From assembly GCA_034670305.1 (NCBI GenBank), contig JAXMNT010000040.1, forward strand, positions 12,480 to 76,479: a stretch of DNA of 64,000 nucleotides. Reading direction: 5' to 3'. The DNA is from Deltaproteobacteria bacterium. GTDB lineage: Bacteria > Myxococcota_A > Polyangia > Polyangiales > Houyiibacteriaceae. Within the stretch, counting starts at the first letter, position 1; every line of letters begins with the position of its first letter. Positions 22,937 through 45,001 of this stretch are shown one piece after another. Position numbers and translations under genes: made by a program. The notes under the pieces are model-generated. The model saw nothing but the letters and a program-made list of their open reading frames with translations. It was not told the origin of the DNA and searched no databases.

Positions 22937-24193
22937 ATGGAGTTGCCGGACCTCGTGCTCGGTCGCTACCGGGTGGAAGGCCTGCTCGGTGAGGGCGGCA
23001 TGGGCTTGGTCTTCCGCGGACGCCACGCCGAAGTCGATCTCCCGGTGGCGATCAAGGTGATCCTCGGCGAAGCGAGCGCGTCGCTGCGGGCGCGTTTTGT
23101 CCGCGAGGCCCAGCTGATGGCCAAGGTGCGACATCCCAACGTCGTCGCGTTTCACGACTTCGGGATCCTGCCCACCGGCGAACCCTGCATCGTGATGGCG
23201 CTCGTCGAAGGAGAACCGCTCGACGAGTACATCGATCGCAAGCGCGCCCTCGCCTGGCCGGAGGTGGTGGAGATCGCGAGCGACATTCTCGAAGGCCTCG
23301 CCGCCGTGCACGCACTCGGCATCGTGCACCGGGATCTCAAAGACGCGAACGTCATGCTCTCCACCCCACCGGGATCCCAGCGCCGACTCGCCCAGCTGCT
23401 CGACTTCGGCATCGCGCGGCCGGACGCGTCGTTCGAGAAGCTGACCAAGACCGGCAGTCTGCTCGGCACGCCGCACTTCATGGCGCCCGAACAAGTCACG
23501 CACTTGCATGCGATCGACCACCGCGTCGATCTCTTCGCGCTTGGGGTGATGATGTTCGAGATGCTCAGCGGGCTGCCACCCTGGGAGGTCGACTCGCACG
23601 CCGCGCTCTTCCGGCGGGTGCAGCAGGAACCGCCGCTTGTGAAAGCGGCCGCCCATCTCGAACCGCTGCCCCCCCGCCTGGTCGAGACCGTGGCCCGGTT
23701 GCTGAAGATCGATCCCTCGGATCGGCCGGCCGACGCCCGCGCGACCCTCCAACTTCTGACCGACACAGCGGCGGCTCCGATGGCGCCGCGCACCTCCCAG
23801 AAGCAGACGGCACGAGGCGGTGCCGCGCGGATCGCCGACACGATCGCCGTCGCAGAGGACGCCCCGCAACCGTGGCTGCTCGCCGCGCGCGTGCCTGCAC
23901 GGAAGTTGCGGCAGAAGAGCCTGCGACAACAGCTCGCCGCGCTGCTCCCGATCGGCGGCCGGGGCTACACGTTGGGGGCGGAGCTGTGGTTCGCGACGTT
24001 GCCCGAAGACCTCGACGCCAGCCAGCGGGTGCGGGTCGACGCGCTGCGACAGGCGCTCACAGCGCTGCTGGGCGAGGTCCCGATCGAAGACGTGGGCGCC
24101 GGTCCCGACTTCCGACTGCCGGCCAGCGCACTTGCTGGGGCGACCCCGTTGCCGGCGACCCTGCAGCGGCTCGTCACCCGACTGCTCGCTTAG
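22937..24193 (+). CDS. Hanks-type serine/threonine protein kinase
   Basis: LGEGGMG, VAIK, HRDLKDAN, DFGIA, GTPHFMAPE and DLFALG. Confidence 0.95.
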   Translation: MELPDLVLGRYRVEGLLGEGGMGLVFRGRHAEVDLPVAIKVILGEASASLRARFVREAQLMAKVRHPNVVAFHDFGILPTGEPCIVMALVEGEPLDEYIDRKRALAWPEVVEIASDILEGLAAVHALGIVHRDLKDANVMLSTPPGSQRRLAQLLDFGIARPDASFEKLTKTGSLLGTPHFMAPEQVTHLHAIDHRVDLFALGVMMFEMLSGLPPWEVDSHAALFRRVQQEPPLVKAAAHLEPLPPRLVETVARLLKIDPSDRPADARATLQLLTDTAAAPMAPRTSQKQTARGGAARIADTIAVAEDAPQPWLLAARVPARKLRQKSLRQQLAALLPIGGRGYTLGAELWFATLPEDLDASQRVRVDALRQALTALLGEVPIEDVGAGPDFRLPASALAGATPLPATLQRLVTRLLA

Positions 24194-24215: not shown

Positions 24216-24280
24216 GGACGGTCCATCGGGATTGTGCATCGGGACGGTCCATCGGGACGGTCCATCGGGGCGGTCAATCA
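24216..24280. repeat. 13 bp tandem repeat x5 between convergent genes
   Basis: GGACGGTCCATCG exact at 24216, 24242 and 24255; variants at 24229 and 24268. Confidence 0.85.
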
Positions 24281-26595
24281 GGGCGGAGCTCGCGCGCCCG
24301 CCGTTCGGCGCGTTCCCACATGCGCAGGTAGCCCTCGGCCGACCGAAAGAGCGGCTCCAGTTCTTCGTCGGTCATGCCGTCTCGGCGCGCGTCTTCGATG
24401 AGCTCCGGCACCAGGCCCAGGTGGATCATGCCTTCGGTGTTGAAGTCGACCGTGCGTTCGCCGAGCTGCGGCTCGGTGAAGGTGACGTCGCCGCGGTACG
24501 ACTGAAACGGATAAGTGATCGGGTTCTCTTGCCCTTCGCCGCAGCCGCTGTTCTCCCCGAAGCGCGGGCGCGGTGACCCGGCGAAACCATTGAGGTCGAA
24601 GCCGAAGCCTTCGGCCGGGTAGCCGCCGTGGTCCCGGATGAACTGGATCTGCTCGACGAACTGCCGCCCCATTGCCCCAGGCACGCCAGGTTCGCCGCAT
24701 CGCCCGAGGTTGATTTTGGACAGTCCGCCGAGTTCGTAGAGGAGCCCATTGTTGTTGCGGCCATGACTTCCGACGGCCGGGTAATCGTTCTCGACCAACA
24801 GCTCGTACGCGCGCTCGTACGAGCGCCGCGGCAAGTGATCGACTTCCAGGATCATGCCGCGAAGCATCATCTCTCGGATCAACGTCTCGCCCAGATCCGT
24901 CAACCCGGTCGCCTGACAGTACTGCCCCTCGAGTGCGGGTTCGCCGAACGCGTCGAGAAACGGCAAGAGCGTGCCGATGGGGCTGTCCGCGAATCCGCTC
25001 ATGTCGTTCGGCGCCGGATCGTCGTAGTTCGCGCGCGGCATGTTCAGCCCGCCGAACACGACCCCGCCGTTGTCGAACGCCGCTTGGCTCTCGGGACAGT
25101 CGGTGACGAAGTTCGAGTAGTGGCCGCTGTTGATGAAGCTGCCGATCTGCCCAACGTTCCGGTCCCCGTCGCCGGCGGAGAACGCGTTGTCGAACTTGTG
25201 CACCGGGAAGAGCACCCGCACGCCGCGCTCGTAGTACTCGTCGAGTTGCGCGCGCACGTAGTTCGCATCGCAGTCGGGGAACCCTTCCCGCGGGGTCAGA
25301 AAACAATCGAAGAGGTTGGAGGTCTCGATGCCGAGCAACACCGCCATGCGGCCTTCGTGGATGACGCGCCGCGCGTCTGCCGGCGAAGTGACCACGCGGA
25401 ACCAACCTTGCCCAGGCCCGCCCGACTGCGCGTCGATGTAGCGCTCGAGCGCGTAGGTCTCTTCGATCTGACGGTCGACCGCGACCATGTCGTTGCATGA
25501 GTAGCGCCGCGGCTGCGCACGAATGCCGGAGATCAACTCGCACAGCACCGAGTTGCTCGTCGCGTCCTGGACGAGCAACCGCAGGCCGGACCGATACGCG
25601 CGCTCGATCCAGCGGTGGTATTGCGCTTGGTGGGTGGAGCTGTTCCAAGCGTTCGGCCAGTCGGTGAAGGTCGGGTAGCCCTCCGGGTGGTGGTTGAACT
25701 CCGGGGTCCGCCCAGTGATGAAGACGCCGATCAGCGCGTCGGTGTCGAGCTCTCCGCCGAGGCCTGAGAACGCGTACCCGATCAGGTCCCGCCGGCCGGT
25801 CGGGCCGTGGAACTGTTGGCAGCTCGGCAACGCGTGTTCGACCCCGAGCCGGTGGTAGGGCGACCCGTGGAACATGCCGGCGCCTCCGAAACCGAAGTTG
25901 GTGAAGAGGTGCGCGTGGGTCTCTACGAAGCCGTAAACGTCTCCGTCCTCCCACGCCGCTCCATCGACGGTGCCCTCTGCGTCAACGGTGAGTTCTGGGA
26001 ACTCGGCGCACCCAGTCGCTGGATAGAACGAGATCGTGGCGGCCGAGTTCACGTCGCTGACCAGGGTGCCGTCCGAGGTCAGGTACGCGCCGGTCGCACG
26101 GTGGCGCAGTTGCAGGCGCGTCTCGTCGGACACGGCGATCTCCACGTCCCACTCCGCCGGTGAGACGAATGCGTCGTCGAGGCGGGTGAGGTCCGATTCG
26201 AGCGTGATCCGGCGACGCAGCGAAGCGACGGGCGCTTCACCTTCCGGCAGCTCGGGCAGCTCCGCCATCTCCGCGCCGTTGGGCACGTCGAACACGACGT
26301 AGCGTCCGTCCGCGTCGTAGAGGAGGTACGTGCCGAGGTCCGCGGCGCGCAACAAGAGCCGCGACGCATTCTCGGGATCCGTGGCCGTGAACTCGAACGT
26401 GGTGCCGAGTTCGTCCGTGGTGAGCCAGCGGGTGTTGGTCGAGCCGGGCGCGGCCGCGTCCATCGTGAAACATCCGTTGGCGAACGAATGCACGCCGTCG
26501 TGCGCAGGCGCCTCCGGCCGCGGAACGACGACCTCGGTGGGCCCGCAGGACACGAGAACGAAGAGCAACGAAAGAACGCAAGGCGCAGAGTGCAT
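24274..26595 (-). CDS. Lipoprotein with membrane-dipeptidase (M19)-like amidohydrolase domain
   Basis: Lipobox LVSC. GFVETHAH (HxH), LGIETS, PVHKFDN, GLTDLG...GMILEVDHL, SHG, GFDLNGF and GMIHLGLVPELIED. Confidence 0.75.
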   Translation of the reverse strand: MHSAPCVLSLLFVLVSCGPTEVVVPRPEAPAHDGVHSFANGCFTMDAAAPGSTNTRWLTTDELGTTFEFTATDPENASRLLLRAADLGTYLLYDADGRYVVFDVPNGAEMAELPELPEGEAPVASLRRRITLESDLTRLDDAFVSPAEWDVEIAVSDETRLQLRHRATGAYLTSDGTLVSDVNSAATISFYPATGCAEFPELTVDAEGTVDGAAWEDGDVYGFVETHAHLFTNFGFGGAGMFHGSPYHRLGVEHALPSCQQFHGPTGRRDLIGYAFSGLGGELDTDALIGVFITGRTPEFNHHPEGYPTFTDWPNAWNSSTHQAQYHRWIERAYRSGLRLLVQDATSNSVLCELISGIRAQPRRYSCNDMVAVDRQIEETYALERYIDAQSGGPGQGWFRVVTSPADARRVIHEGRMAVLLGIETSNLFDCFLTPREGFPDCDANYVRAQLDEYYERGVRVLFPVHKFDNAFSAGDGDRNVGQIGSFINSGHYSNFVTDCPESQAAFDNGGVVFGGLNMPRANYDDPAPNDMSGFADSPIGTLLPFLDAFGEPALEGQYCQATGLTDLGETLIREMMLRGMILEVDHLPRRSYERAYELLVENDYPAVGSHGRNNNGLLYELGGLSKINLGRCGEPGVPGAMGRQFVEQIQFIRDHGGYPAEGFGFDLNGFAGSPRPRFGENSGCGEGQENPITYPFQSYRGDVTFTEPQLGERTVDFNTEGMIHLGLVPELIEDARRDGMTDEELEPLFRSAEGYLRMWERAERRARELRPD

Positions 26596-26661: not shown

Positions 26662-27300
26662 CTACGCAGGTGGCTTGTCCACCCGGAGTCGCGCGGCAGT
26701 CTCCGCGTCCACCGGGTAGACCCGCTCACTCGGGGTCTGCAACTCGTCGCGGGGACGGTCGCGCTGTTCGATCACGAACGGGGTCGCGTCTTCGATGCGG
26801 ACGATGTCGTCGTGGACGTAGCGTTCGACCGCGGGACCCCGCAGCCCGATCTGGATCGCGCGCCGTTCGAGTTTCTCGCCGCCGGGGCCGTGGTCCGGAT
26901 CCCACTGCAACCGAACCGACGAGTCTTTGACCGCTCGCTTCCACTCGGCCTCGGTGTCGAAGAGGTGGCGGGGCCAGCTCGAGTGCACCGCGGCCGCGAG
27001 GTAGCTGTCGAACGCGTCGCGGCGAAGATGGAGGGCGAGCACCCGCTCCTGGCCCTGGCTGCGCGCCCAGTCCGAGCGGTACATCATCCAGAGGAAGTTC
27101 GGTTTGATCCACGTCATGCGGGTCATCGAGAACGGCCCGCCGAAACGCTGGTGCGTCAGCGCGTGCTCGGCGATGGCGACTGGGTAGGCCTGGTAGACGA
27201 CGATCACGGCGTCGTCCCAGTGCGCCATCACGTGACGGCCTTCGCTGGGCCAGCGGGTGTGCTGATCGATCCAGCGTTCGGTCGGGAGAGAGAACTTCAT
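26662..27300 (-). CDS. DUF4291 family protein
   Basis: VVYQAY, RMTWIKPNFLWMMYRS, QERVLA, VRLQWDPDH and RRAIQIGL. Confidence 0.9.
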   Translation of the reverse strand: MKFSLPTERWIDQHTRWPSEGRHVMAHWDDAVIVVYQAYPVAIAEHALTHQRFGGPFSMTRMTWIKPNFLWMMYRSDWARSQGQERVLALHLRRDAFDSYLAAAVHSSWPRHLFDTEAEWKRAVKDSSVRLQWDPDHGPGGEKLERRAIQIGLRGPAVERYVHDDIVRIEDATPFVIEQRDRPRDELQTPSERVYPVDAETAARLRVDKPPA

Positions 27301-28297: not shown

Positions 28298-28542
28298 GCC
28301 GCCCTCCATCTCAAGACCCGTGCCACCCGTTTGTGGTCACAAACCCCGTAATTCTTGGGTTTGGCCGCAGATCGGGACTGTGAACACGGGTTCCGATCGG
28401 CCTGGATCGCCAACTCGCGGTGACGCTGGGTCGAAGCGACCCCACTGCGAACTTCGGTTCTCAAGGGTGGATGGAGTCTCTGCGCGAACCATGTTCCGAA
28501 GCACGGGTGCGGAGGCTGTGGCTGGGTCTCTCGGCCCCAAAC

Positions 28543-28573
28543 TTGACCGGGCGCGACTGCACACCTGTAAAAT
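28543..28573 (+). promoter_or_regulatory. Possible sigma70-type promoter for the SseB gene (possibly leaderless)
   Basis: TTGACC-N19-TAAAAT; ATG lies 6 nt after the -10 element. The spacer is long. Confidence 0.35.
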
Positions 28574-28579
28574 GTGGGA

Positions 28580-29812
28580 ATGGAGGATCGTGCGCTCTCG
28601 GCTTTTCGCCGCCTACTGGCCGATGGGGCCGCCGGTGGGCAGTCGAAGGTGGATGCGCTCGTCGCATTGGCTCAGCGCACGGTCTTCGTCGCGACGTGGA
28701 CGGCGGGCGGCGACGACTTCCGCACCCTCATCAACAGCAACGGCCAGAACGCGCTTCCCCTCTTCACGGATCTCGCGGAGCTCGAAGGCGCCGCCCAGCG
28801 CCTCGGTTGGGTGACCGCCGACGGCCGGATCCCGCACCAAGAGATTGGCGCCCGTCGCGCGTTTCGACACCTGATCGCGCACGACCTCGGCTTCATCATC
28901 ATCGACATCGCGGCCGACCACTCTCTCGAGTGCGAACGGTCGGAGATCGAACCGCTGATGCAGCGCCGGGGCAACGACCAGACCGGGCCCTTCGCAGGGG
29001 TGGGCCGGATCAGCGAGACCATGCTGCAGGCGGTCAAAGCGACTCCGTCGAAGGGGACACCCATGGTGGGCGCGGTCGATCCACCGTCGAAGCTCCCGAG
29101 CGGCGCGTTGGTCCCATCGAGTCCGGGCACGACCACGAGCCCGGGCGAACAGTCCAGTCCGGGCGCATTCGACAGCCCTTCCCAGTCTTCGCCGGGCACC
29201 CAGTCTTCGCCCGGCACCCAGTCTTCGCCGGGCACCCAGTCTTCGCCGGGCACCCAGTCTTCGCCGGGCACCCAGTCTTCGCCGGGCACCCAGTCTTCGC
29301 CGGGCACCCAGTCTTCGCCGGGCACCCAGTCTTCCCCTGGCACCCAGTCTTCCCCTGGCAGCCAGGCCGCCCCGTCCTCGCCGGGCGATCTCCCGACCCC
29401 CGACATGGACCCGCCGGCACCGGGCCTCTCCGTCTCCGACGCCCTGCCCTCGACCACCTCTGCGGCCACGTTCGGATCCGGCGCGAGCACCGTGGAGATC
29501 CAGCCGATCTCGCAGGAGCCGAGCAACGAACTGCTCGATGCGATCAGTGCCGTCTTGAGGGGCTACCCGGAGATCGAATGGGCCGCGTTCTGCATGACCT
29601 CGCGCGGACCTGCGGGTGCGTTGCCGACCATCGGGCTCCGTGTCGACACGAGCTACCGCGCGCGGGTCAACGAGATCATCCGTGACATTCGGACGGCGGG
29701 CGATGGGCGCGGGGCCAGCCTCGATGTGCTCTTGCTCGACGACCCTTCCTTGGTCCGGGCAGCCCGCAGCTCGGCGATTGTGTTCTTCCCGTGGCGCCGC
29801 CGCTCGAGTTGA
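28580..29812 (+). CDS. SseB-family protein with an internal Ser/Pro repeat
   Basis: N-terminal SseB-like NGQNALPLFTDLAEL...GFIIID. The C-terminal domain YPEIEWAAF...LDVLLL...IVFFP resembles SseB_C. Confidence 0.7.
   Translation: MEDRALSAFRRLLADGAAGGQSKVDALVALAQRTVFVATWTAGGDDFRTLINSNGQNALPLFTDLAELEGAAQRLGWVTADGRIPHQEIGARRAFRHLIAHDLGFIIIDIAADHSLECERSEIEPLMQRRGNDQTGPFAGVGRISETMLQAVKATPSKGTPMVGAVDPPSKLPSGALVPSSPGTTTSPGEQSSPGAFDSPSQSSPGTQSSPGTQSSPGTQSSPGTQSSPGTQSSPGTQSSPGTQSSPGTQSSPGTQSSPGSQAAPSSPGDLPTPDMDPPAPGLSVSDALPSTTSAATFGSGASTVEIQPISQEPSNELLDAISAVLRGYPEIEWAAFCMTSRGPAGALPTIGLRVDTSYRARVNEIIRDIRTAGDGRGASLDVLLLDDPSLVRAARSSAIVFFPWRRRSS
29183..29362 (+). repeat. Coding 18 bp tandem repeat x10 encoding QSSPGT
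   Basis: CAGTCTTCGCCGGGCACC units; 9 QSSPGT plus 1 QSSPGS. Confidence 0.95.
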
Positions 29813-29897
29813 CCGTGGCGCGCTGAAATCCGTACGCGCCACCTGGAAGACGTGAGACCTTCACCCATCGCGACCGACGCGTCGCATGGAGGGATTC

Positions 29898-30248
29898 ATG
29901 GTCGACAAGAAGAACCTGGGCGCCGGCAAGGCAGGGGCAGTGGCTGGCAAGAAGACGGGTGGCAAAGGCGTGCCTGGCAAAGCTGCGGCACCGGCGAAGA
30001 CCGCTGCCAAGGGCGCGGGCAAAGCCGCCGCCAAGGGTGCGGGCAAAGTCGCCACCAAGGGGGCCGTCGCGGGCAAAGGCGCGGCCCTCGCCAAGGGTGC
30101 AGGCGCCGCTGGAAAGGGCGTGGGCAAGGTGGCCGGCAAAGGCGCAGCGCCTGCCGCCAAGGGCGCCGCCAAGGGTGCCGCCAAGCCTGCCGCCAAGGGT
30201 GCCGCCAAGGGTGCCGCCAAGGGGGGCGCCGCCAAGGGCAAGAAGTAG
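29898..30248 (+). CDS. Lys/Ala/Gly-rich basic low-complexity (histone H1-like) protein
   Basis: GGAGG RBS; repeated AAKG/KGAG units and only one acidic residue. Confidence 0.7.
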   Translation: MVDKKNLGAGKAGAVAGKKTGGKGVPGKAAAPAKTAAKGAGKAAAKGAGKVATKGAVAGKGAALAKGAGAAGKGVGKVAGKGAAPAAKGAAKGAAKPAAKGAAKGAAKGGAAKGKK

Positions 30249-30335
30249 CGTTCCGGACACGCCGGCGGATCTCTTCCGTCGGCGTCGTCCTCCGCTCCGG
30301 TTGACGATTCCAACCGGGGACTGCACGCCTTTGGT

Positions 30336-31682
30336 GTGAGTGCAGACTTCGACGAAGAGCGAACGGACCCTTCGAACCACGCGTTCGGGTCGTGCGCGCC
30401 GAAGATCTGGACGCCCGTGCCCGGCAGCACCTCGCAGGCCCTCGTCGAAGTGTTGGCCCGCACCGAGTGCCCCGCATTCACCGCGCGTCGGGCCCGTCGT
30501 GCCGAGACCTCGGGGGCGTCCGCCGATCCGATCGTCTGGACGCGGGCGGTTGGATCGAACGTCGGCGACGCCGACGGAAACATCTACGTCGATCTCACCT
30601 CTGGATTCGGCGTCGCGGCGATCGGGCATGCCCACCCCGCCGTGACCGCGGCGGTGACGGTGCAAGCGGCCAAGCTCTCACACGCGCTCGGCGACCTTCA
30701 TCCGTCCGCGGTGAAGATCGAACTCCTCTCACGGCTCTGCGCGATGGCGCCATTCGAGGATGCCCGCGCCGTGCTCTCGCTCAGCGGCTCCGACGCGGTC
30801 GAGACCGCGCTGAAGACCGCGATGCTCGCCACCGGAAAGCCGGGGGTCCTCGCATTCGACGGGGGCTACCACGGGCTCTCGCACGGACCGCTGGCCGCCT
30901 GCGGCTACAGCCTTGGGTTCCGGAGACCCTTCGCGGCACAACTCAACCCGCACGTTCGGTTCGCGTCGTGGCACGAGGTCGACGCTGGGGCTGCGATGGA
31001 AGCGGTGGAGCACGCGTGGACCGAAGACATCGGCGCGGTGCTCCTCGAACCGCTTCAGGGACGCGGAGGTTGTCGGCCCTCCGCGCCCGGATTTCTCGCG
31101 TCGCTCTCAAAGTTCTGCCGCCAGCGCGGCGCCTTGCTGATCGTCGATGAGATCCTCACCGGGCTCGGCCGCACCGGTCGTCCTGGTGGCCGGATGTTTC
31201 TCAGCGACGCGCTCGGCGCCTCGCCGGATCTTCTCTGCGTCGGCAAAGCACTCGGAGGCGGGCTGCCGGTGAGCGCGTGCATCGGGCGCGCCGAGGTGAT
31301 GCAGGCGTGGGGCGACCCCGATGGAGAGGCGCTGCACACCGGCACGTTCTTCGGTCATCCGCTCGGGTGCGCCGCGGCCCTCGCCGCACTCGACGTGCTC
31401 GAGTCCCTCGGCGACCGCGCGACGGTGATCGGCGAGGCGTGGCGCGCGCGGCTGCGACGCATCACCGGCCGGCCGGTCACGGGCGCCGGGCTGCTCCTTG
31501 GTGTCCGGTTCGACCACAACGTGCTCCCGCTCGTCGCGCGGCTGCTCGAACGCGGCTACCTGACGCTGCCCGCCGGCGCCGACGCACACACCCTGCAACT
31601 CGCGCCACCGATCCCGATCGACGAAGCACTCCTGCACGGATTCGACGCCGCGCTGGCCGAGGTCCTGGCGGACGCCGGATGA
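30336..31682 (+). CDS. Class III PLP-dependent aminotransferase
   Basis: DADGNIYVDLTSG, SGSDAVETALK, GYHG, EPLQG, DEILTGLGRTG, PDLLCVGKALGGG and HTGTFFGHP. Confidence 0.93.
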   Translation: MSADFDEERTDPSNHAFGSCAPKIWTPVPGSTSQALVEVLARTECPAFTARRARRAETSGASADPIVWTRAVGSNVGDADGNIYVDLTSGFGVAAIGHAHPAVTAAVTVQAAKLSHALGDLHPSAVKIELLSRLCAMAPFEDARAVLSLSGSDAVETALKTAMLATGKPGVLAFDGGYHGLSHGPLAACGYSLGFRRPFAAQLNPHVRFASWHEVDAGAAMEAVEHAWTEDIGAVLLEPLQGRGGCRPSAPGFLASLSKFCRQRGALLIVDEILTGLGRTGRPGGRMFLSDALGASPDLLCVGKALGGGLPVSACIGRAEVMQAWGDPDGEALHTGTFFGHPLGCAAALAALDVLESLGDRATVIGEAWRARLRRITGRPVTGAGLLLGVRFDHNVLPLVARLLERGYLTLPAGADAHTLQLAPPIPIDEALLHGFDAALAEVLADAG

Positions 31683-32719
31683 GTCCCGAGTCCGAACGCG
31701 CGCGGCTGCGCAGCGCGATCCTCGAGTTCATGCCGCGCTCGATCGAGTCGCCGGACGAGAAAGCGCTCGGTGCGTTGCTGGACGATGTCGCCGAATGGCA
31801 AGCCCGGCACGTGCCGCCCTACGCGCGGTTGGTCGCCGCGCGGGGCATCGGTGCAGCGCTCCCGACCGATGTGTTTCGACACGCCCGCGTCGCCGCGCAC
31901 CCGCTGTCCCAAGACGTCGCGGTGTTCCGCACGAGCGGCACGACCGCGAGCCCCGGCGAACACTTCTTTCGGTCGCTCGAACTCTACGAGACCGCGGCGC
32001 GGCTCTGGGCATCGCAGCTGCTTTTCCCGAGCGACGTGCGGATGCGCTTTGTGCTCATGGACACGCCGCGCCCCGGCTCGTCGCTGGCGCACATGGTGTG
32101 GTCGTTCACCGACTGGTTCTCCGCGGGCGATTCCAGCCAAGTGACCCCCTGCGATCCGAACAGCGCGGCAGAGGTCGCGCAGACGATCGAAGCCGCCGCT
32201 GGCGACGGTCCGGTGTGTCTGCTCGGCACCAGCTTCGCGTTCGTCTTTGCGGAGGAGGCCCTGCGCGAATCGGGTGCGAGCTTCCAGTTGCCCGAGGGCA
32301 GCCGCATCATGCACACCGGCGGCTTCAAGGGCCGCACCCGCGAGGTCGAACCCGCCCACATGATCGAACAACTCGCCGCGCGCTACGGCGTCGCGGAGAA
32401 TCACGTCGTCGCCGAGTACGGCATGACCGAGCTCAGCTCGCAGGCCTACGAGACCACGCTCACAGAGCCCAACACACCGCGCCGGTTGAAGTTCCCGCCT
32501 TGGGTGCGCGCAACCGCCGTCGACCCCGCGACCTTGGAGCCCACTGGCGACGCGCCCGGCATCCTGCGCCTCGAAGACCTCGCGAACCTCGACTCGTGTT
32601 GCCGGATCCAGACCGCCGACATGGCCCGCCGCGAAGGCGACGGTTGGGTGCTGCTCGGTCGCGCGCCCGGCGCGGTGCCACGCGGGTGTTCACTCGCCAC
32701 GGAATCGGCGCTCGCGTGA
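31679..32719 (+). CDS. LuxE-like acyl-protein synthetase
   Basis: FRTSGTT, HTGGFKGR, EYGMTELSSQ, DLANLDSC and C-terminal GR...RGCS. ATGA overlap with the upstream gene. Confidence 0.88.
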   Translation: MSPESERARLRSAILEFMPRSIESPDEKALGALLDDVAEWQARHVPPYARLVAARGIGAALPTDVFRHARVAAHPLSQDVAVFRTSGTTASPGEHFFRSLELYETAARLWASQLLFPSDVRMRFVLMDTPRPGSSLAHMVWSFTDWFSAGDSSQVTPCDPNSAAEVAQTIEAAAGDGPVCLLGTSFAFVFAEEALRESGASFQLPEGSRIMHTGGFKGRTREVEPAHMIEQLAARYGVAENHVVAEYGMTELSSQAYETTLTEPNTPRRLKFPPWVRATAVDPATLEPTGDAPGILRLEDLANLDSCCRIQTADMARREGDGWVLLGRAPGAVPRGCSLATESALA

Positions 32720-33882
32720 GTTACCGGGTGACCCGCGCCGATGAGGTACGCGCCCGCGTCGATGCGATCCGCGCAGCGGGCGTTGGCCTGCGCGCGCTGA
32801 CCAAGAAGGATCTGGAGGCTTTGTGTCGGGCGGTGCGGTGGGTCGCCGACGACAGCGACCTCCGTTCCGCGATCGCACGACGGACGGGTCTCTCGACGCC
32901 GATGGTCGAGTGGGGGCTGCGTACCAGCGTCGAATCGCTGGACGCGGAACGGCTGCTCGAGGTCCGCGAGCAGCTGGGGCTCGACTGGGAGAGCAACGCA
33001 TCGGGACACGTGGCGGTGGTGCTCAGCGGCAACCTCTTCACCGCCTGCCTCAAACCGATGCTCTGGCCGCTGGTGCTCGGGGTGCCCGTGATCGCGAAAG
33101 CCACGGCACGGGACGACGTGCTCGTCCGCGCCCTTGCGGATCGATTGCCCGATCCGTTCGCAAATGCGATCGCGGTCGAGACATTCTCTCGCGACGAGAC
33201 CGCGTGTCTTGAGGCACTGCTGCAGACGGACGTCGTCCACGTGTACGGTGGTGCGTCGGCGATCGAAGCGGTGCGTGCACAGGCACCGGCTCGGGCCTTG
33301 GTGGTGCCGCACGGGCACGGCTTCGGTGTGGCCTTGGTCTCCTCGGTGGGATTCGAAGCCACACAGGCAGACATGCTGGCGCTCGACGTCGCCGCCTACG
33401 ACCAGCACGGCTGCCTCTCTCCACGCGAAGTGTGGGTGGTGGGAGACGCCACTCAGGTCGCCATCGATCTCGCCGCCGCGCTGGATCGGTTGGAGGTCCG
33501 GCTGCCACGGGGTGCCGTGTCCGATTCGGGCGCTCAGCAAAGCTGGCTCGGCACTGTCCAGTCGCTCGGCGACGTCCGAGTGGGACACAGTTCGGTGGTC
33601 GCGATCGAACCGCAGGGCAGTGCGCTCCCCCGCGGGCTCGGAGACCGGACCGTCGTTGTCCGTGGGGTGGCCAGCTTCGAGGCGGCCGGACTGGAACTCG
33701 CTGCGCTCGGGCCGCACCTCAAGTGTGTCGGCTACTACTGGACGAAGGCCCACCCGACCGTCGTGCCGGTGCCACCGATGCCTTCGGCGCCGCGCTGCGT
33801 GCCGATCGGACAGATGCAGACGCCGTCGTTCTTCGACCGCCACGACGGATGGGAGCCCTGGCTCGGACTCGTCCGGCGCTGA
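32716..33882 (+). CDS. LuxC-like acyl-CoA/acyl-protein reductase
   Basis: VVLSGN, VYGGASAIEAVR, HGHGFG, DVAAYDQHGCLSP, IGQMQTP and HDG. GTGA overlap with luxE. Confidence 0.85.
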   Translation: MSYRVTRADEVRARVDAIRAAGVGLRALTKKDLEALCRAVRWVADDSDLRSAIARRTGLSTPMVEWGLRTSVESLDAERLLEVREQLGLDWESNASGHVAVVLSGNLFTACLKPMLWPLVLGVPVIAKATARDDVLVRALADRLPDPFANAIAVETFSRDETACLEALLQTDVVHVYGGASAIEAVRAQAPARALVVPHGHGFGVALVSSVGFEATQADMLALDVAAYDQHGCLSPREVWVVGDATQVAIDLAAALDRLEVRLPRGAVSDSGAQQSWLGTVQSLGDVRVGHSSVVAIEPQGSALPRGLGDRTVVVRGVASFEAAGLELAALGPHLKCVGYYWTKAHPTVVPVPPMPSAPRCVPIGQMQTPSFFDRHDGWEPWLGLVRR

Positions 33883-33885
33883 CGT

Positions 33886-34620
33886 TCAGACGCCGATGAA
33901 GAGGCGGTGGCCGAAGTTGCGTTCCAGTTTGGACTGGAAGATCTTCGAGGCGGCCGCTTCGATGTCGTACTCGACTCGGCGGAACCCGAAGGTGCGCGTG
34001 TCGGTGTCGAAGGTCGTGTAGCTCGCGCGGTTGTCGTAATCGCGCGGCTGGCCGACGCTGCCCACACTCACGATGTACTTCGCGCCCTCTTCCAGCTGGA
34101 AGTCCTGCGCAGTCATCTCTTCGACCTCGCCCGGCGTCAGCTTGAACACCTTGCAGAGGTGCGAGTGGCCGATGAGCGTGATGTCGCCGAGCTCGTCCCA
34201 GATCTGGAGACACTCGCGCGCCTGCTCGGGCGCAAAGATGTACTCGAACTCTTCGAGCCGAAGCGGTGAGCCGTGGCAGAGGTGCACGCCGCAGTCGAGT
34301 TCGTGTTTGTACGGAAGGGTCTTGAGCCAGTCGACGTTCTCTTCCGTCAAGATGCTGGCGTGGTAGTCGAGCGCCTGACGGGCCGCCTGGTAGTAGTACG
34401 AGTAGTCCATCCGGCCCGCGACGGCTGCGTCGTGGTTGCCAAGGATCGTCACCTTCGCGGTGTCTCGGATGATGTCGGCGCACTCGTTCGGACTCGCCCC
34501 GTAGCCGACCACATCGCCCAGACAGTAGAACTCGTCGATCGCCTCGGAGTCGTACCCCGCCATCACAGCCGAGAGGGCTTCGATGTTGGCGTGGACGTCG
34601 CTGAAAATCCCGAGGCGCAT
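33886..34620 (-). CDS. Metallophosphoesterase (calcineurin-like)
   Basis: SDVHAN, LGDVVGYG, GNHD, HGSP, GHSH and GSVGQPRD. Confidence 0.93.
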   Translation of the reverse strand: MRLGIFSDVHANIEALSAVMAGYDSEAIDEFYCLGDVVGYGASPNECADIIRDTAKVTILGNHDAAVAGRMDYSYYYQAARQALDYHASILTEENVDWLKTLPYKHELDCGVHLCHGSPLRLEEFEYIFAPEQARECLQIWDELGDITLIGHSHLCKVFKLTPGEVEEMTAQDFQLEEGAKYIVSVGSVGQPRDYDNRASYTTFDTDTRTFGFRRVEYDIEAAASKIFQSKLERNFGHRLFIGV

Positions 34621-34714
34621 GGGGGTGGGTCGCGACGCGGAGAGGTCGCAGACCGAACCTATCTTGTAGAGCCCGCGGGGACAATTGTCCACGACGGTTT
34701 CTCTGGGGTGAACC

Positions 34715-37399
34715 TCAGCCGCGGACCGCCGCGACCACTTCGTAGAAACGTCGGCTGAATCCATGCACCCCATCGTCGGGGTCTTTTCGGCTGCCCTGCA
34801 CGATCGCCGCATGATCGTCCACGAGTTGGCGGTGGGTGCGGGCTCCAGCCGCGAGTTTGCGGACCGAATCGTGGGAGTCGTCGTGCAACTGGTCGAGCTT
34901 GCCCACTTCGAGCCGAGTCATGTGTGCGATGGTGTAGGAGAAGCGCTCCCCCGCCCCTTTGGGCTCCCGCATGGCCCGGGCCAGTGTCCGGATCGCAGCA
35001 CTTCCGAACAGGGCCAGGACCCGCCCGACCTCGTGCCAGACCTCGGTCGGCTCGTCGCGCAGCAGCTGCACGAGTGGGGAGATCGCACGCCGGAGTTTCA
35101 ACTCCCCGAGGGCGAGGGCTGCGGCTTGTCGCACGAACGTCTTTCGGGCGGCGAGCGCGTCGATCAGGGCGTCGGCCCCCTCTTCTCCGAAGGCCACGAC
35201 GCGTGGCACCACCTCAAGCACCTCTTCGCGCGGCATCTTGCGGGTGGCGCGCAACACGAGTGGAACGAGTTTCGCGTCGGTGCGCGAGAGCAACTCCAGC
35301 GCAGCCGGCAAACGCATCTTCGGGTGCTCGAGCAGCTCGCTGAGACGCGGTGGCGGGAGCGTCTTCAGCTCGGCTTCCTCGACCACCGCCGGGCCGGTCT
35401 CTCCCTTGGCCGCGTTGATGTCTTTCCACGCCGCTTCGTGGGTGTCGCTGTCGAGCGCGACCTCGTACGCATCCGCGAGCGCGAGCAGCCGCTCCCAGTT
35501 GCGCGCGACCGCGTCCTCGGAGAGTCCGCCCCGCTCTGGCAGCGCCGCGGTGCCTCGGAACGAATCGGCCACCCGCAACACGAGCTCTCCAGGTTCTGCG
35601 ACGACGCCGAGCGAGACCGCCCGGGCGATGAGTCGCTCCGAGATCGCGACGCCGTGACGAATCGCGTCGTCGAGCACTCGACGGAAGCTGTCGTCCACCA
35701 GCTGGCGGGGAAGCGAGAGCCCGAGCAGCGCCAGCTCCATCTTGACCGGCGTGCTCCACTTCGAGAGCGCCGCGACGGCCTCGAGCGCTTCGGATGCGGT
35801 TTCGGCATCCGCTGCGACCACGAAGGGATGACCGCGAAGTCGGACGGGCGGGGGCGCCGCCAACGCACGCTCCATGGACGTGATGCCGTCTCCGGTGCCC
35901 TCGGCGCGGTCCGCGTGTTCCAGCGCCATCGCGAGGTTGAGTTCACGCTCGGGCACGTGAAGCTCCAAGGTACGTTCGTAGCTCCCCGACGGCCCGAAGA
36001 GCGCCACCTTCAATCGCAGATCGGTGCGCAGCAGATCGAGCATGGCGCGATCGCCCGCCTTGCGCGGATCGAACGCTGCCCGACGGACGTACGGGCGGTC
36101 GTCGCCCCAGTCGACGAGCGCCAGCAAGACGACCGGGTAGTCTTCGACGGCCACGTACTGCACGAGCAACTCGGCCCGTTTGCGGAAACTCTCTTCGTGT
36201 CCTTCTTCAAGGCGCGCGAAGAGCCAAGGCCCATCCGCCATGCGGGCCAACATCTGGATCTGCCGATCCTCGAAGAGTTCGGGAGGTGGGGTCGCGGCGC
36301 CGGAAAGCGGGCCATCCATCACCGGTGGCTGCTCGCTCCGGTGCACGCCGGTGGTGTCGACCTCGGCGATCTCGAGCACGTCCGAGTCGTCGAGTTCCTC
36401 GCCTTCGACCAGTTCTTCGACGTCCTCCAGCAACTCCGCGGCGAGCTCTTCCACGTCTTCCTCGTGCAACCCATCGGGTGCCTCAGAGACATCGCGCGGA
36501 TCGACCAGACCGAACGGCGCTTGCTCCAACCCATCGTCCGGCTCGACGATGTCCGGCTCCGCGTCGTCGACCAATTCAACCGACTCGACCAGCGGTGCGG
36601 GCCGTTCCGATTGCGCCATCGTCGGTTCCGCGTCGAGGTCGCGCACCTCTTGGACGAGGTCGTCGGTGAGCTCCCCGGGCAGATCGCCGGATGTGATCTC
36701 GTCCGCGAACTCTCCGAGTTCGGCGGCGTCGTCGGAGAGCGCGTGGACCTCTTCGAGCATGTCGCGCTCCCGTTCGCGCAAACTCTCGAACCGCGTGTCC
36801 AGCTCCTGCTCGCGGAGCGCGACTTCTCGTCGTGCGGCCTCGAGCCGTTCGCCTTCGAGTCGCAGCTCGTCTTCGCGCGCGGTCACCGCCTCCGCGCGTG
36901 CCCGCAAACGCGACTCCCGATCGGCGAGCAGTTCTTCGCGTGCTTCCGCTTCCCGCGCCCGGACCGCCCCCACCCCTTTGGCGTGGTCGCCGCTCACCCG
37001 CAGGCGAAGCGCTTCGAGCGATACGACAACTTCTGCGTCGGCGACGTAGGGCGGCACAGGATGCGCGTGGTCGTCGCCGATGCGGCGGAGCAGATCCGCG
37101 CGCTCGTGAAAGATGCGGTGCGCGAGGACCTGCGGGACCACGAGTACGAAGATGTGTCGGCTCGGGTCGTGGTAGACGAACGGAAGCGCCAGAGCCTGGC
37201 CGTCGTCGAGCACATGCAGCGTGCCGGACAGCGCCCGCTCGCCGAGACCCGGGTCGGTCGCCACGTTGACCACCCGGTGCAGCAGCACCGCGACCATGCC
37301 GCGTTTGCCGCCCGTCGCATCATCGGTGGGTGCGGGCACATGCACCGGTTCGGTGCGTGTCTGTCCCTCTCGGCCCTCGTACGCGAAATGTTCGGTCAC
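34715..37399 (-). CDS. Large protein: CpXC-like N-terminus, coiled coil, acidic linker, C-terminal HEAT repeats
   Basis: VNVATDP...LSGTL...PFVYHDP; long E/R heptads; D/E-rich linker; FVRQAAALALGELKLRRAISPLVQLL. Confidence 0.7.
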   Translation of the reverse strand: MTEHFAYEGREGQTRTEPVHVPAPTDDATGGKRGMVAVLLHRVVNVATDPGLGERALSGTLHVLDDGQALALPFVYHDPSRHIFVLVVPQVLAHRIFHERADLLRRIGDDHAHPVPPYVADAEVVVSLEALRLRVSGDHAKGVGAVRAREAEAREELLADRESRLRARAEAVTAREDELRLEGERLEAARREVALREQELDTRFESLRERERDMLEEVHALSDDAAELGEFADEITSGDLPGELTDDLVQEVRDLDAEPTMAQSERPAPLVESVELVDDAEPDIVEPDDGLEQAPFGLVDPRDVSEAPDGLHEEDVEELAAELLEDVEELVEGEELDDSDVLEIAEVDTTGVHRSEQPPVMDGPLSGAATPPPELFEDRQIQMLARMADGPWLFARLEEGHEESFRKRAELLVQYVAVEDYPVVLLALVDWGDDRPYVRRAAFDPRKAGDRAMLDLLRTDLRLKVALFGPSGSYERTLELHVPERELNLAMALEHADRAEGTGDGITSMERALAAPPPVRLRGHPFVVAADAETASEALEAVAALSKWSTPVKMELALLGLSLPRQLVDDSFRRVLDDAIRHGVAISERLIARAVSLGVVAEPGELVLRVADSFRGTAALPERGGLSEDAVARNWERLLALADAYEVALDSDTHEAAWKDINAAKGETGPAVVEEAELKTLPPPRLSELLEHPKMRLPAALELLSRTDAKLVPLVLRATRKMPREEVLEVVPRVVAFGEEGADALIDALAARKTFVRQAAALALGELKLRRAISPLVQLLRDEPTEVWHEVGRVLALFGSAAIRTLARAMREPKGAGERFSYTIAHMTRLEVGKLDQLHDDSHDSVRKLAAGARTHRQLVDDHAAIVQGSRKDPDDGVHGFSRRFYEVVAAVRG

Positions 37400-37563
37400 G
37401 AAACACGATCGGTATCACAGCAGGGCAATGTGGTCATCCGTGACGATCGCAGTCTGTGTCCGGGGACGGTCGGATCCGCCACCCATCCGGCCAGCCATCC
37501 GACCCAGTCACACGGCCGGCTCGACGAGGTGCCCGAACGGACATTGCGGGCTATGTCGGGGCG

Positions 37564-38184
37564 ATGGCCGACGCCCCGACCCACGTGACCGATCTGGCGA
37601 CCGCATGTGTGCACAGCGTGAAGCAGACGCTCGACATCGCGCTCGACCTCCAACCCGACACCCTGCCGATCCTCGACCACTATGTCCGTGAGATCCTCGA
37701 ACGCGACGCCGAGGGTCTGGCGCTCGGGGTATCGATCTGTGGGGCCTACTTTGGTGAGGTGGTGCGGCGCCGGTTCGAGTCGGTCCGGTGGTTCGCGCCT
37801 CAGGCGATCTCGGACGTGCTGCGCACAGAGGAGCTCGCGCACGGCGAGATGGCCGGCGACCCCTATCCCGAGTGGCGCCTCGAGTTCGAGCAGGTGTTTC
37901 TCCACTTCAACCCGCTCGGGGTGGCGCTCGAGGTGGCGGAGACCGCCGACGCGGCCGGCTGGAAGGCGCACCTCGGGGTGCAGAAGCGGGACCGTGAAGC
38001 CGTGGACGCATCGGTGGCGCTCTTCGGGGTGGCCCGAGAACGCGACTACTACTCGTTCACGGTTCGGTTCGAGGTGCTCGAGCAGGTGGTCGAGGCGCTG
38101 GTCCGCGAACGGCAACACCGCAAGGAGTCCCCTGGGTCCTACGGGCCGGTCGACTACGCGAGCGCGCCGTCCATCCTCTCCTGA
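37564..38184 (+). CDS. Hypothetical protein (DUF3806-like motif)
   Basis: LDLQPDTLPILDHYVR...GAYFGEVVRR. Confidence 0.6.
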   Translation: MADAPTHVTDLATACVHSVKQTLDIALDLQPDTLPILDHYVREILERDAEGLALGVSICGAYFGEVVRRRFESVRWFAPQAISDVLRTEELAHGEMAGDPYPEWRLEFEQVFLHFNPLGVALEVAETADAAGWKAHLGVQKRDREAVDASVALFGVARERDYYSFTVRFEVLEQVVEALVRERQHRKESPGSYGPVDYASAPSILS

Positions 38185-41595: not shown

Positions 41596-41765
41596 GTCGT
41601 GCCTTCTTTCTGCGCTCCACGAAAGAGCGACCGTTGGCTTCCCTCCTCGGTGGCACGCTGGGCCGGTTGCGTCGTTTTCGTACTTTCGCCTCCGAGCCGC
41701 TCTGCCTTTTGTCGTCGCGGGCAAACGTGCAAGGATCTGGATGTGTCGAAACCGAGGACAGGGAC

Positions 41766-42344
41766 GTGAGTGTGGACCGAGCGGCGGCCGCCGCAGCGAT
41801 CGAGGCGTTCCTGACTGCGCTCGGACATCCACCGGACTCCGACCCCGAACTCGCAGAGACCGGCGTGCGGGTCGCGGAAGCGTTCGGCGAGGACCTGCTC
41901 GCGGGCTATCGGATGGATCCCGCGAAGATCCTCCGGGAGACCTGCGGGGTCGACGGCGACTCGGAAGGGCTCGTGGCGTTGTGCGACATTCAGACCACAA
42001 TCGTCTGCCCCCACCATCTGTTGCCGGCGACCGGGGCAGTGCACGTCGGGTACCTGCCCGGAGACAGCCTTGTCGGGCTGGGCGCGCTCGGTCGATTGGT
42101 CCAGTGCCACGCACGCCGGCTCGCGCTTCAAGAGGATGTTTGTAGAGACATCGCCCGGTCGCTCGTGCTCCACGCCGGGGCCCGCGCGGCGGCATGCACC
42201 GCAGATCTGGCACCCGCCTGCGTGCGTGCCCGAGGCGACCGCCAAGCCCACGCGCGCAGTGTGACGATGGCCTATGCCGGAGACGCGGACGAAGGGTTCC
42301 GCGCTGCCTGGCTCGCCCACCTCACGGTGCGATCGCATGCGTGA
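41766..42344 (+). CDS. folE: GTP cyclohydrolase I (FolE)-like protein, divergent
   Basis: ETGVRVA, CPHHLLP.TG.VHVGYLP, RRLALQE and CVRARG. Confidence 0.75.
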   Translation: MSVDRAAAAAAIEAFLTALGHPPDSDPELAETGVRVAEAFGEDLLAGYRMDPAKILRETCGVDGDSEGLVALCDIQTTIVCPHHLLPATGAVHVGYLPGDSLVGLGALGRLVQCHARRLALQEDVCRDIARSLVLHAGARAAACTADLAPACVRARGDRQAHARSVTMAYAGDADEGFRAAWLAHLTVRSHA

Positions 42345-42993
42345 TGTCCCAGCACTGACCGAGTCGGAGCTGGAGGCCCTGCCCATCTTCCCGCTCCCGC
42401 GCGTGGTCTTCTTTCCGGGCACGCTGTTGCCGCTTCACCTCTTCGAAGAGCGGTACCGCGATCTGGCGGAGTGGTGCACCACCCATGGACCGGCCGCGAT
42501 GGCGATCGCGTTGCTCGAGCCCGGCTACGAAGACGAGTACGAGGGGCGCCCCTCGATCCGGCCCGTCGCGGGCGCAGGCCGCATCGTCGCGCACGAACGC
42601 AACGACGACGGCACCCACGATCTGGTGCTGCACGGCGTCACCCGCGTCTCACTCGAAGAGTTCGGCACGGACCAATCCTTCCGGATCGGCAAGGCGACCG
42701 CGCTTCGATCCCACGAAGGCAGCCTGGGTCACCGCGACGTGACCACCCTGGTGACCTGTGCGACCCAGGTCGCACAAGTGGTGCGCCGGAAACATCCAGA
42801 CTTCTCACTCGGCGTCGGCGTGGCCGACCCGCCCGGCTTGGTCGCAGACACCATCGCCGATCGGTTCGTGGCGGATCCCGACAAACGCCAGGCGATCCTC
42901 GAGGCCCTCGACCTCGGCGAACGCGTGCACCTCGTCACCGACGCCGTCGGCGAGCTGCTCGCGATGCTCGCCAGCAACGACGTGAGTTCTTAA
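42337..42993 (+). CDS. LON peptidase substrate-binding (N-terminal) domain protein
   Basis: LPIFPLP..VFFPG..LPLHLFEERYR and KRQAILE...ER. Confidence 0.88.
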   Translation: MRDVPALTESELEALPIFPLPRVVFFPGTLLPLHLFEERYRDLAEWCTTHGPAAMAIALLEPGYEDEYEGRPSIRPVAGAGRIVAHERNDDGTHDLVLHGVTRVSLEEFGTDQSFRIGKATALRSHEGSLGHRDVTTLVTCATQVAQVVRRKHPDFSLGVGVADPPGLVADTIADRFVADPDKRQAILEALDLGERVHLVTDAVGELLAMLASNDVSS

Positions 42994-43721: not shown

Positions 43722-43793
43722 CGACGGATAGTTCCCTCGGGTGTTGAGAGGGGGCGCCGGGCTGAAGGCTCTGGGAAGCCAGGTGGCTCGGAC

Positions 43794-44989: not shown

Positions 44990-45001
44990 GGGCGGGTCTC
45001 T

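Follow-up and report, generated by a model that had tools for sequence, protein, structure and literature searches.

Three overlapping genes at positions 30336-33882 of a bacterial genome fragment encode a class III aminotransferase (AT) and distant relatives of LuxE and LuxC, the partners of the fatty acid reductase of luminous bacteria. The fragment, referred to here as the window, is a 64,000-nucleotide stretch of contig JAXMNT010000040.1 (positions 12,480 to 76,479, forward strand) from the Deltaproteobacteria bacterium assembly GCA_034670305.1, a 7.9 Mb genome that is 96% complete. Comparison across genomes suggests that the trio probably takes the place of two enzymes of queuosine synthesis. 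The three genes are as follows.

30336-31682, + strand: class III, pyridoxal phosphate (PLP)-dependent AT, 448 aa; Pfam Aminotran_3, 272.1 bits (cut-off 30.5)
31679-32719, + strand: LuxE-like adenylate-forming acyl-protein synthetase, 346 aa; Pfam LuxE, 44.8 bits (cut-off 24.9)
32716-33882, + strand: LuxC-like acyl-thioester reductase, 388 aa; Pfam LuxC, 83 bits (cut-off 21)

The start of the LuxE-like gene overlaps the AT stop codon in an ATGA at 31679-31682 (...GGATGAGT...), and the GTG start of the LuxC-like gene overlaps the LuxE-like stop codon in a GTGA at 32716-32719 (...GCGTGAGT...). Coupling of the three genes by these two overlaps had been described in an earlier sequence-only reading of the window, and both are present in the sequence. 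The same reading had named the motifs GKALGGG, TSGTT, a C-terminal RGCS and YDQHGCLS, every one of which we located in the translations, and its family assignments were borne out by profile searches in which LuxE, LuxC and Aminotran_3 all scored above the Pfam gathering threshold. Scanning positions 28300-34300 for promoters and terminators returned nothing beyond shuffled expectation.

The kinship of the two Lux-like proteins with their namesakes is remote. The LuxE-like protein is the sole match to Pfam LuxE (PF04443) in the window's genome, and the match is limited to residues 165-302, corresponding to profile positions 196-337 of 391. Against the NCBIfam equivalogs, the LuxE-like protein reaches 25.4 bits (NF052244, cut-off 550) and the LuxC-like protein, at 388 aa versus 477-478, reaches 32.2 bits (NF052251, cut-off 750); NCBIfam places no protein of the trio in a named equivalog. 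The sole solved relatives are LuxE chain 7xc6_E for the LuxE-like protein (28 bits) and LuxC chain 7xc6_A for the LuxC-like protein (27 bits). Residues S86, G214, G215, K217, E251 and R335-G336-C337 of the LuxE-like protein are invariant in all 36 aligned orthologues. C337 of 346 is the tenth residue from the C-terminus, the same distance as Cys364 of 373 in LuxE, the residue given as acylated in a review (PMC12041015). HMMER leaves the tails of the LuxE-like protein and 7xc6_E unaligned, and the likeness of C337 is one of position only. In the LuxC-like protein, C233 is invariant across 40 of 40 orthologues and aligns with the Cys of the QQACFS motif in 7xc6_A. None of the roughly 22 open reading frames (ORFs) scanned between 21.6 and 46.3 kb hit a luciferase or LuxD model, a search for those families that did not extend to the remainder of the window or genome, and the annotated neighbours of related loci likewise include no luciferase or LuxD gene.

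The AT departs from its class in a different way. Its best NCBIfam match is the ArgD subfamily (TIGR00707; 241 bits, below the cut-off of 410), it scores 204.5 bits against GabT (TIGR00700, cut-off 506.65), and it falls under every NCBIfam cut-off. The PLP lysine K304 and the PLP aspartate D271 are each kept in 60 of 61 orthologues. In GabT, ornithine aminotransferase and acetylornithine aminotransferase, the Arg of the HG-R motif binds the distal carboxylate of the omega-amino acid, and a C-terminal Arg, gated by the Glu of QGEGG, binds the alpha-carboxylate of glutamate or 2-oxoglutarate. When the AT is aligned to 1vef (the Thermus acetylornithine/acetyl-lysine enzyme) and 4ffc (a GabT), Leu181 and Gln421 replace the Arg of HG-R and the Arg of the C-terminal (V/I)R(F/L)xPP. 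Position 181 is Leu in 54 of 61 AT orthologues and Arg in none; position 421 is Arg in none of the 61. The canonical QGEGG Glu has become Arg in 55 of the 61, and the residue preceding the PLP lysine is Gly, not Ala. The resulting signature (YHG-L, QG-R-GG, G-K and no Arg at 421) recurs in 40 of 40 adjacent orthologues of other phyla and in the unlinked orthologues tested, one of which reads GREA at the QG-R-GG motif. In paralogues from these genomes, the usual residues are FHGRT, QGEGG, AK and R; the C-terminal Arg is kept throughout, and Arg never occurs within the QGEGG motif.

By this signature, the AT is a distinct subfamily of class III aminotransferases. That it is no typical ArgD, GabT or BioA, on which the sequence-only reading depended, is confirmed by its 241 bits versus the 410 needed for ArgD and by replacement of both carboxylate-binding Arg. 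Because both of these Arg are replaced, we infer that the amine substrate has no carboxylate, with Arg243 as the putative relocated site for the amino donor. The window's genome encodes a further class III aminotransferase on contig C79 (positions 5779-6924, locus L036), which scores 399 bits against the PigE aminotransferase domain (cut-off 850), keeps QAEGG, AK and R, and may belong to a natural-product cluster.

The three genes are widespread and travel together. A LuxE-like gene is found in 242 of 301 sampled genomes of the window's phylum, mostly as one match per genome, and a LuxC-like gene in 39 of 41 related genomes. Close homologues come from sources named Polyangiales, Sandaracinus and Myxococcota and are annotated 'acyl-protein synthetase'. 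The trio is colinear at all 20 loci surveyed from 20 genomes of the same order as the window. At 20 further loci from 20 families, the LuxE-like and LuxC-like genes are adjacent in every case and the AT gene is adjacent at 14. Where the AT was not adjacent, an orthologue lay elsewhere in the genome in five of five genomes tested (282-369 bits, versus at most 172 bits for paralogues), and one of those five, G159, has a second, complete trio. Beyond the phylum, we examined 80 loci from named public genomes. The AT adjoins the LuxE-like gene in 40, of which 32 also have a LuxC-like match. The order AT-LuxE-LuxC occurs in genomes labelled Spirochaetales, Omnitrophota, Oligoflexales and Rickettsiales, and the order LuxE-LuxC-AT in Vulcanimicrobiota/Eremiobacterota, Verrucomicrobiia and Acidiferrales. 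An AT orthologue is encoded elsewhere in all five complete genomes (three Longimicrobiales, one Dehalococcoidia and one Thermoanaerobaculia) whose LuxE-like gene has no AT next to it. With both sets pooled, the AT orthologue is thus present in 10 of 10 tested genomes in which it is unlinked from LuxE and LuxC. Of 20 genomes that lack a LuxE-like gene, 19 lack the AT orthologue too; in the lone exception, G221, the AT sits at the very edge of a contig and the genes downstream are cut off.

Gene fusions follow the same pattern. Metagenomic proteins of 669-918 aa join AT to LuxE in 4 clusters (P0124-P0127) and LuxE to LuxC in 42 (P0128-P0169), some of which may be gene-calling read-throughs of the overlaps. 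Our search of long LuxE proteins returned fusions with AT or LuxC alone and none with queuosine enzymes, and a search for long LuxC-like fusion proteins returned none, which is weak evidence. Because the genes are coupled, syntenic, co-occurring when unlinked and fused, comparison of these sequences indicates that the trio is a single functional module. The neighbourhood survey thereby upheld the conservation on which the sequence-only reading depended, with colinearity at 20 of 20 loci of the window's order and two gene orders across phyla. At five loci (L143, L151, L152, L157 and L167, from Binataceae, a 'delta proteobacterium' and Terrimicrobiaceae), a different class III aminotransferase follows LuxE-LuxC; it has HGD or HGH, QAEGG and AK and keeps the C-terminal Arg, a possible independent recruitment of a transaminase.

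Queuosine is a near-universal modification of the tRNA wobble position, made de novo by FolE, QueD, QueE, QueC, QueF, Tgt and QueA, then QueG or QueH, a pathway generally regarded as settled. QueE produces 7-carboxy-7-deazaguanine (CDG), which QueC converts to the nitrile preQ0 using ATP and ammonia; QueF then uses NADPH to form preQ1 (7-aminomethyl-7-deazaguanine), the base that Tgt inserts into tRNA. The window's genome encodes Tgt (482 bits) and, adjoining it, QueA (422 bits, cut-off 324). It also has a QueD-like protein (PTPS, 76 bits; TIGR03367, 64.6 bits, cut-off 89) and a QueE-like radical S-adenosylmethionine (SAM) protein with the motif CNLRCRWCDT, whose five best NCBIfam matches are all QueE models (best 91 bits versus 206). 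Neither QueC (PF06508) nor QueF (PF14489) was found in this genome by Pfam models or by tblastn with the QueC and QueF of a relative. The gap is therefore the step from CDG to preQ1, from a carboxylic acid to an aminomethyl group, which matches acid-aldehyde-amine chemistry exactly.

Across genomes, the module and the two enzymes are near-exclusive. For a first test we took 20 LuxE-negative and 20 LuxE-positive genomes from 12 families, picked before results were seen. Full-length QueC was present in 18 of the 20 LuxE-negative genomes and in none of the 20 LuxE-positive ones; the two negatives that lacked it were G221, with its AT at the contig edge, and G042. A strong QueF match occurred in 16 of 20 LuxE-negative and 0 of 21 LuxE-positive genomes of a 41-genome subset, all 41 of which have Tgt. 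Cross-tabulating by hand the LuxE-like and QueC listings for the 301 genomes of the phylum gave the following counts.

LuxE-like present (242 of 301 genomes): QueC present in 5, absent in 237
LuxE-like absent (59 of 301 genomes): QueC present in 49, absent in 10

Switches can be seen within families. In family f16, G310 carries adjacent queC and queF and no LuxE-like gene, and G039, searched for QueF and not for QueC, has the LuxE-like gene; in family f41, G170 differs from nine others. The pattern extends to a second phylum, that of locus L122 (labelled Gemmatimonadota), where, of 71 sampled genomes, the five with a strong LuxE-like match gave no QueC and the other 66 gave QueC in 54 (hypergeometric chance about 5e-4, uncorrected). 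The count of 54 includes G392, which is flagged unpublished and on which the claim does not depend. Outside the window's phylum, QueC was likewise found in none of five complete module-bearing genomes (three Longimicrobiales, one Dehalococcoidia and one Thermoanaerobaculia); the three Longimicrobiales belong to the second phylum, and G331 is counted in the 71-genome sample as well.

The upstream enzymes are retained. QueD was present in 19 of 21 LuxE-positive genomes of the phylum and QueE, by one QueE model, in 16 of 21, and both were present in all five genomes of other phyla. G042, which has Tgt and lacks QueC, QueF, QueD, QueE, the LuxE-like gene and the AT orthologue, behaves, on gene content, as a salvage-only genome and so as a control. 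A few loci link the trio to queuosine genes directly: at Gemmatimonadota locus L148, 50 bp separate the end of a QueE gene (299 bits) from the LuxE-like gene downstream; in G029 the distance between QueE and the trio is 3 kb; and in Minicystis rosea DSM 24000 QueD (99.9 bits, cut-off 89) is 2.5 kb away from the trio.

Tgt itself varies in copy number. Two full-length Tgt-family matches occur in all 10 LuxE-positive genomes outside the window's order (G052, G086, G160, G183, G207, G229, G259, G302, G106 and G091), and a single match occurs in 19 of 20 LuxE-negative genomes (18 of the 20 being QueC-positive, G221 and G042 not) and in all 11 LuxE-positive genomes of the window's order. A second transglycosylase paralogue thus seems to accompany the module in lineages outside that order.

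We propose that the trio is, with fair probability, a QueC- and QueF-independent route from CDG through 7-formyl-7-deazaguanine to preQ1. The LuxE-like enzyme would use ATP to convert the carboxylate of CDG to CDG-AMP and would then move the acyl group, as a thioester, to its own Cys337 on a flexible C-terminal tail. This tail would hand the thioester over to Cys233 of the LuxC-like reductase, which would reduce it with NAD(P)H to 7-formyl-7-deazaguanine. The AT would convert this aldehyde to preQ1, taking its nitrogen from a donor, probably an amino acid bound at Arg243. Tgt and QueA would then use the preQ1, and preQ0 would never be formed. Substrate, intermediate, product, cofactors and amino donor are all predicted, and the steps are drawn by analogy with LuxE and LuxC, whose path runs from acyl-AMP through a Cys thioester to an aldehyde (PMC12041015). 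The proposed intermediate has been described before: QueF variants release it on hydrolysis of the imine intermediate (PMC13740343). Loss of the distal-carboxylate Arg in 61 of 61 AT orthologues fits a substrate free of carboxylate. For the last two steps there is a precedent in tambjamine biosynthesis, where a LuxC-related reductase and a transaminase yield an amine, as described in a preprint (bioRxiv 10.1101/2025.08.11.669332).

Taken more broadly, the results lean modestly towards a second, previously undescribed preQ1 route, made up of a LuxE-type enzyme, a LuxC-type enzyme and a transamination, that would replace QueC and QueF, skip preQ0 and be the main route in Myxococcota (about four-fifths of sampled genomes). 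It would also be scattered through lineages labelled Gemmatimonadota (Longimicrobiales), Eremiobacterota/Vulcanimicrobiota, Verrucomicrobiota, Acidobacteriota, Spirochaetota, Dehalococcoidia and others. In literature searches that left subscription journals mostly uncovered, we found no paper that ties LuxE, LuxC or the AT to preQ1 and none that describes the trio in myxobacteria. As far as can be told, what is new is the use of the trio as a non-orthologous replacement for QueC and QueF that skips preQ0; the enzyme families and the acid-aldehyde-amine logic are known.

Several observations weigh against this bypass. The evidence comes from comparative genomics throughout (gene structure, families, catalytic residues, synteny, co-occurrence and the complementary distribution of QueC and QueF), and the two-by-two counts, which draw on related and hence non-independent genomes, are uncorrected for phylogeny. 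Five genomes hold both QueC and a LuxE-like gene (G223, G277, G309, G319 and G327, with the AT adjacent in G223), and 10 LuxE-negative genomes in the phylum sample and 12 in the second-phylum sample lack QueC too. For 7 of those 12, some first-look LuxE candidates were left unscored, and a LuxE-like gene may therefore have been missed. In family f43, genomes G183 and G302 have the LuxE-like gene and QueE with no QueC and no PTPS/QueD match. They also encode a 219-aa QueF-like protein with an N-terminal extension (G183:C1:1990216-1990437 and G302:C2:952635-952862, loci L202 and L203) that scores 73-82 bits against TIGR03139 (QueF-II), whose cut-off is 86.9; a third f43 genome, G090, has a complete trio. 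The window's genome encodes divergent QueD-like and QueE-like proteins that score below the NCBI curated cut-offs. It also encodes a protein weakly homologous to YhhQ, the precursor transporter of E. coli (26% identity, E 1e-6), and so may salvage preQ1. Rfam searches of the window and of 13 loci of other phyla returned no family, the preQ1 riboswitch included. Finally, few loci join the trio directly to queuosine genes: a QueE-like radical-SAM ORF was found at 2 of 121.

The sequence-only reading had named other possible products, a fatty amine, an amino-lipid or a metabolite precursor. In a rival explanation built on it, the trio would turn a fatty or lipophilic acid, via the aldehyde, into a fatty amine or an amino-lipid precursor, the absence of QueC and QueF would be unrelated, and preQ1 or queuine would be salvaged, as the YhhQ homologue would allow. 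We regard this as very unlikely. Characterised LuxE and LuxC do act on myristic acid, according to the review (PMC12041015), but the LuxE match here spans only residues 165-302 and the equivalog scores are far too low (25 versus 550 bits for LuxE, 32 versus 750 for LuxC). A LuxC-cluster reductase and an omega-transaminase together yield a fatty amine in the biosynthesis of the tambjamine BE-18591 (bioRxiv 10.1101/2025.08.11.669332); the module studied here is very widespread (242 of 301 genomes), mostly with one match per genome. Leu in place of the carboxylate-binding Arg of the AT would suit a hydrophobic substrate too, yet no lipid genes recur in the annotated neighbourhoods, and a fatty product leaves unexplained why, in two phyla, the module and QueC and QueF almost exclude each other, and why QueD and QueE are retained where QueC is absent. 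What survives of the earlier proposal is the acid-aldehyde-amine logic and the joint action of the three enzymes, supported by coupling, synteny, fusions and co-occurrence. The fatty substrate probably does not: low LuxE and LuxC equivalog scores, the lack of conserved lipid neighbours and a phyletic pattern that points to a queuosine precursor all speak against a fatty amine or amino-lipid.

In a second alternative, the product of the trio would be a different small primary amine or an omega-amino acid of central metabolism, for example beta-alanine (from malonate), GABA, ornithine, diaminobutyrate or 5-aminolevulinate, or else its target would be a carboxylate on a peptide or protein; the anticorrelation with QueC would then reflect shared ancestry. 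We consider this unlikely. The nearest characterised relatives of the AT use acetylornithine, GABA or putrescine, but both carboxylate-binding Arg are missing in 61 of 61 AT orthologues. A housekeeping-like distribution would fit such a role; among the substrates tested, however, a pathway gap exists for CDG alone, as ArgA, ArgB, ArgC, ProB, Asd, two aspartate kinases, HemA, HemL and BioA are encoded elsewhere in the genome. PanD was not found in the window's genome, but it is present in 142 of 301 genomes and in 14 of 17 of the window's family, all 14 of them LuxE-like-positive, and so shows no complementarity with the module.

Individual substrates were dismissed on the same inventory. With these kinase and reductase genes and HemA and HemL present, the module replaces neither the Arg, Pro or Asp pairs nor the C5 aminolevulinate route. 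This disposes of LuxE and LuxC as ArgB/ArgC, ProB/ProA or Ask/Asd with the AT as ArgD (ArgA, ArgB, ArgC, ProB, Asd and two aspartate kinases being present elsewhere), and of 5-aminolevulinate with the AT as a HemL-like aminomutase. With Arg243 as a relocated carboxylate site, an aminomutase need not be invoked. No aminotransferase in the window's genome reaches the ArgD cut-off, and a GabT-like paralogue on contig C29 is a better ArgD candidate. Beta-alanine synthesis as a substitute for PanD was rejected, since many relatives with the LuxE-like gene have PanD as well (14 of 17 genomes of the window's family).

The surroundings of the trio vary between lineages. Within the window, its neighbours are as follows.

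22937-24193, + strand: Ser/Thr protein kinase, upstream of the block; no link to the trio seen
24274-26595, - strand: 773-aa protein with a partial membrane-dipeptidase (M19) match; no link to the trio seen
26662-27300, - strand: DUF4291 protein; no link to the trio seen
28574-29812, + strand: SseB-like gene; Pfam SseB N-terminal domain, 24 bits
29886-30248, + strand: Lys/Ala-rich ORF of 120 codons, between the SseB-like gene and the AT; ends ...AAKGAAKGGAAKGKK
33886-34812, - strand: metallophosphoesterase, convergent with the LuxC-like gene, 3 bases between the stop codons
34715-37399, - strand: HEAT-repeat protein, 894 aa, after the metallophosphoesterase
37456-38184, + strand: 242-aa protein with no family match
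41634-42344, + strand: divergent second GTP cyclohydrolase I (FolE-like); Pfam GTP_cyclohydroI, 121.8 bits; NCBIfam FolE, 132 bits (cut-off 174)
42265-42993, + strand: LON substrate-binding-domain protein, after the FolE-like gene
43035-43796, - strand: RibA, after the LON-domain gene
43919-45001, - strand: PrfA, after RibA

FolE catalyses the first step of 7-deazaguanine synthesis. The FolE-like gene begins 7.8 kb downstream of the trio, with the other FolE copy on contig C21, and is possibly related to the trio as a loose neighbour. Of the 10 genomes of the order in which its position could be assessed, 7 (the window's, G012, G013, G025, G037, G029 and G031) have it in one syntenic block with the trio; it was not found in the block of G036, G011 or G002, and the blocks of G018 and G028 are cut by contig ends. 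Several genomes of the order have a block of the second FolE, the LON-domain gene, RibA and PrfA close to the trio. The SseB-like gene keeps its place directly upstream of the AT at 11 of 20 loci of the order, abutting it in some, and may belong to the operon in this order only. The metallophosphoesterase, the HEAT-repeat protein and the 242-aa protein form a stable syntenic block in the order, and the metallophosphoesterase is 65-86% identical at 15 of 20 loci, above the conservation of the trio itself.

We clustered 1142 neighbour ORFs from 121 loci and annotated the representatives. No universally conserved partner gene emerged from this survey, which returned lineage-specific neighbours alone: SseB-like, metallophosphoesterase, HEAT-repeat, cation efflux, ABC transporter, GGDEF-FHA, Cys/Met PLP enzyme, PAPS reductase, SufBD and ribosomal proteins. 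The annotated neighbourhoods contain no recurrent acyl carrier protein, thioesterase (LuxD), acyltransferase or other lipid gene. Among loci L144 and L150 (Vulcanimicrobiota/Eremiobacterota) and L093 (Dehalococcoidia), the LuxE-like gene directly follows the genes for ribosomal proteins S11, S4 and L17 at two and is close to RNase PH at the other. Such ribosomal-protein and RNase PH surroundings are a translation-related housekeeping context.

If the proposed bypass is correct, genomes scored as auxotrophs or salvagers of queuosine precursors for want of QueC and QueF would be producers, and both metabolic reconstructions and community models of queuosine exchange among microbes would change. 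Large lineages would lack preQ0, which bears on preQ0-derived products and on riboswitch and transporter predictions. Widespread 'acyl-protein synthetase / acyl-CoA reductase' pairs would gain a function, the first physiological role for LuxC and LuxE homologues in non-luminous bacteria. A compact three-enzyme conversion of a heteroaromatic acid to an aminomethyl group would be of interest for biocatalysis beside the QueF nitrile reductases. The AT would define a new subfamily with a swapped Glu/Arg pair in the active site and a relocated substrate-binding charge. The hypothesis is directly testable in standard E. coli queC and queF mutants.

The proposed bypass shares its start (CDG), its end (preQ1) and its place between QueE and Tgt with the canonical pair QueC and QueF. 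In both, ATP would first activate the carboxylate of CDG and a covalent Cys adduct would form. The families are unrelated, however, and the proposed route would run through an aldehyde rather than a nitrile, without preQ0, drawing nitrogen from an amino donor by transamination instead of from ammonia and using one reduction instead of two.

With the LuxC-LuxE fatty acid reductase of Photobacterium phosphoreum (PDB 7XC6), the trio shares two Pfam families, the aligned reductase Cys and a tail Cys ten residues from the C-terminus; as in luminous bacteria, the window's LuxE-like and LuxC-like genes are adjacent, and elsewhere they are also fused. It differs in its great distance (27-28 bits), its shorter reductase (388 versus 477 aa) and its AT partner. 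No LuxD or luciferase gene lies among the scanned neighbours of the trio, whose distribution tracks the absence of QueC and QueF, not luminescence. Lux-like operons of order CEDA, reported for the marine myxobacteria Enhygromyxa and Plesiocystis in one study (PMC7671414), are distinct from the trio.

Acetylornithine, GABA and putrescine aminotransferases (1vef, 4ffc and 4uox) are the best solved matches of the AT (178-196 bits) and share its fold family, PLP lysine and aspartate, but in the AT HG-R has become HG-L, QG-E-GG has become QG-R-GG, A-K has become G-K and the Arg of the C-terminal (V/I)R(F/L)xPP is lost. Closest in logic are TabE/TabA and TamH of the tambjamines and PigE of prodigiosin, which likewise proceed from thioester to aldehyde to primary amine. 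TabE falls in a sequence cluster containing LuxC, according to the preprint (bioRxiv 10.1101/2025.08.11.669332), and the window's AT scores 212 bits against the PigE aminotransferase domain model and 159 bits against PDB 4ppm. Those systems use fatty acyl-ACP or acyl-CoA thioesters and sit in narrowly distributed biosynthetic gene clusters, whereas the trio has its own ATP-dependent LuxE-like activator, is near-universal in its phylum, lies in housekeeping surroundings and carries a different AT active-site signature.

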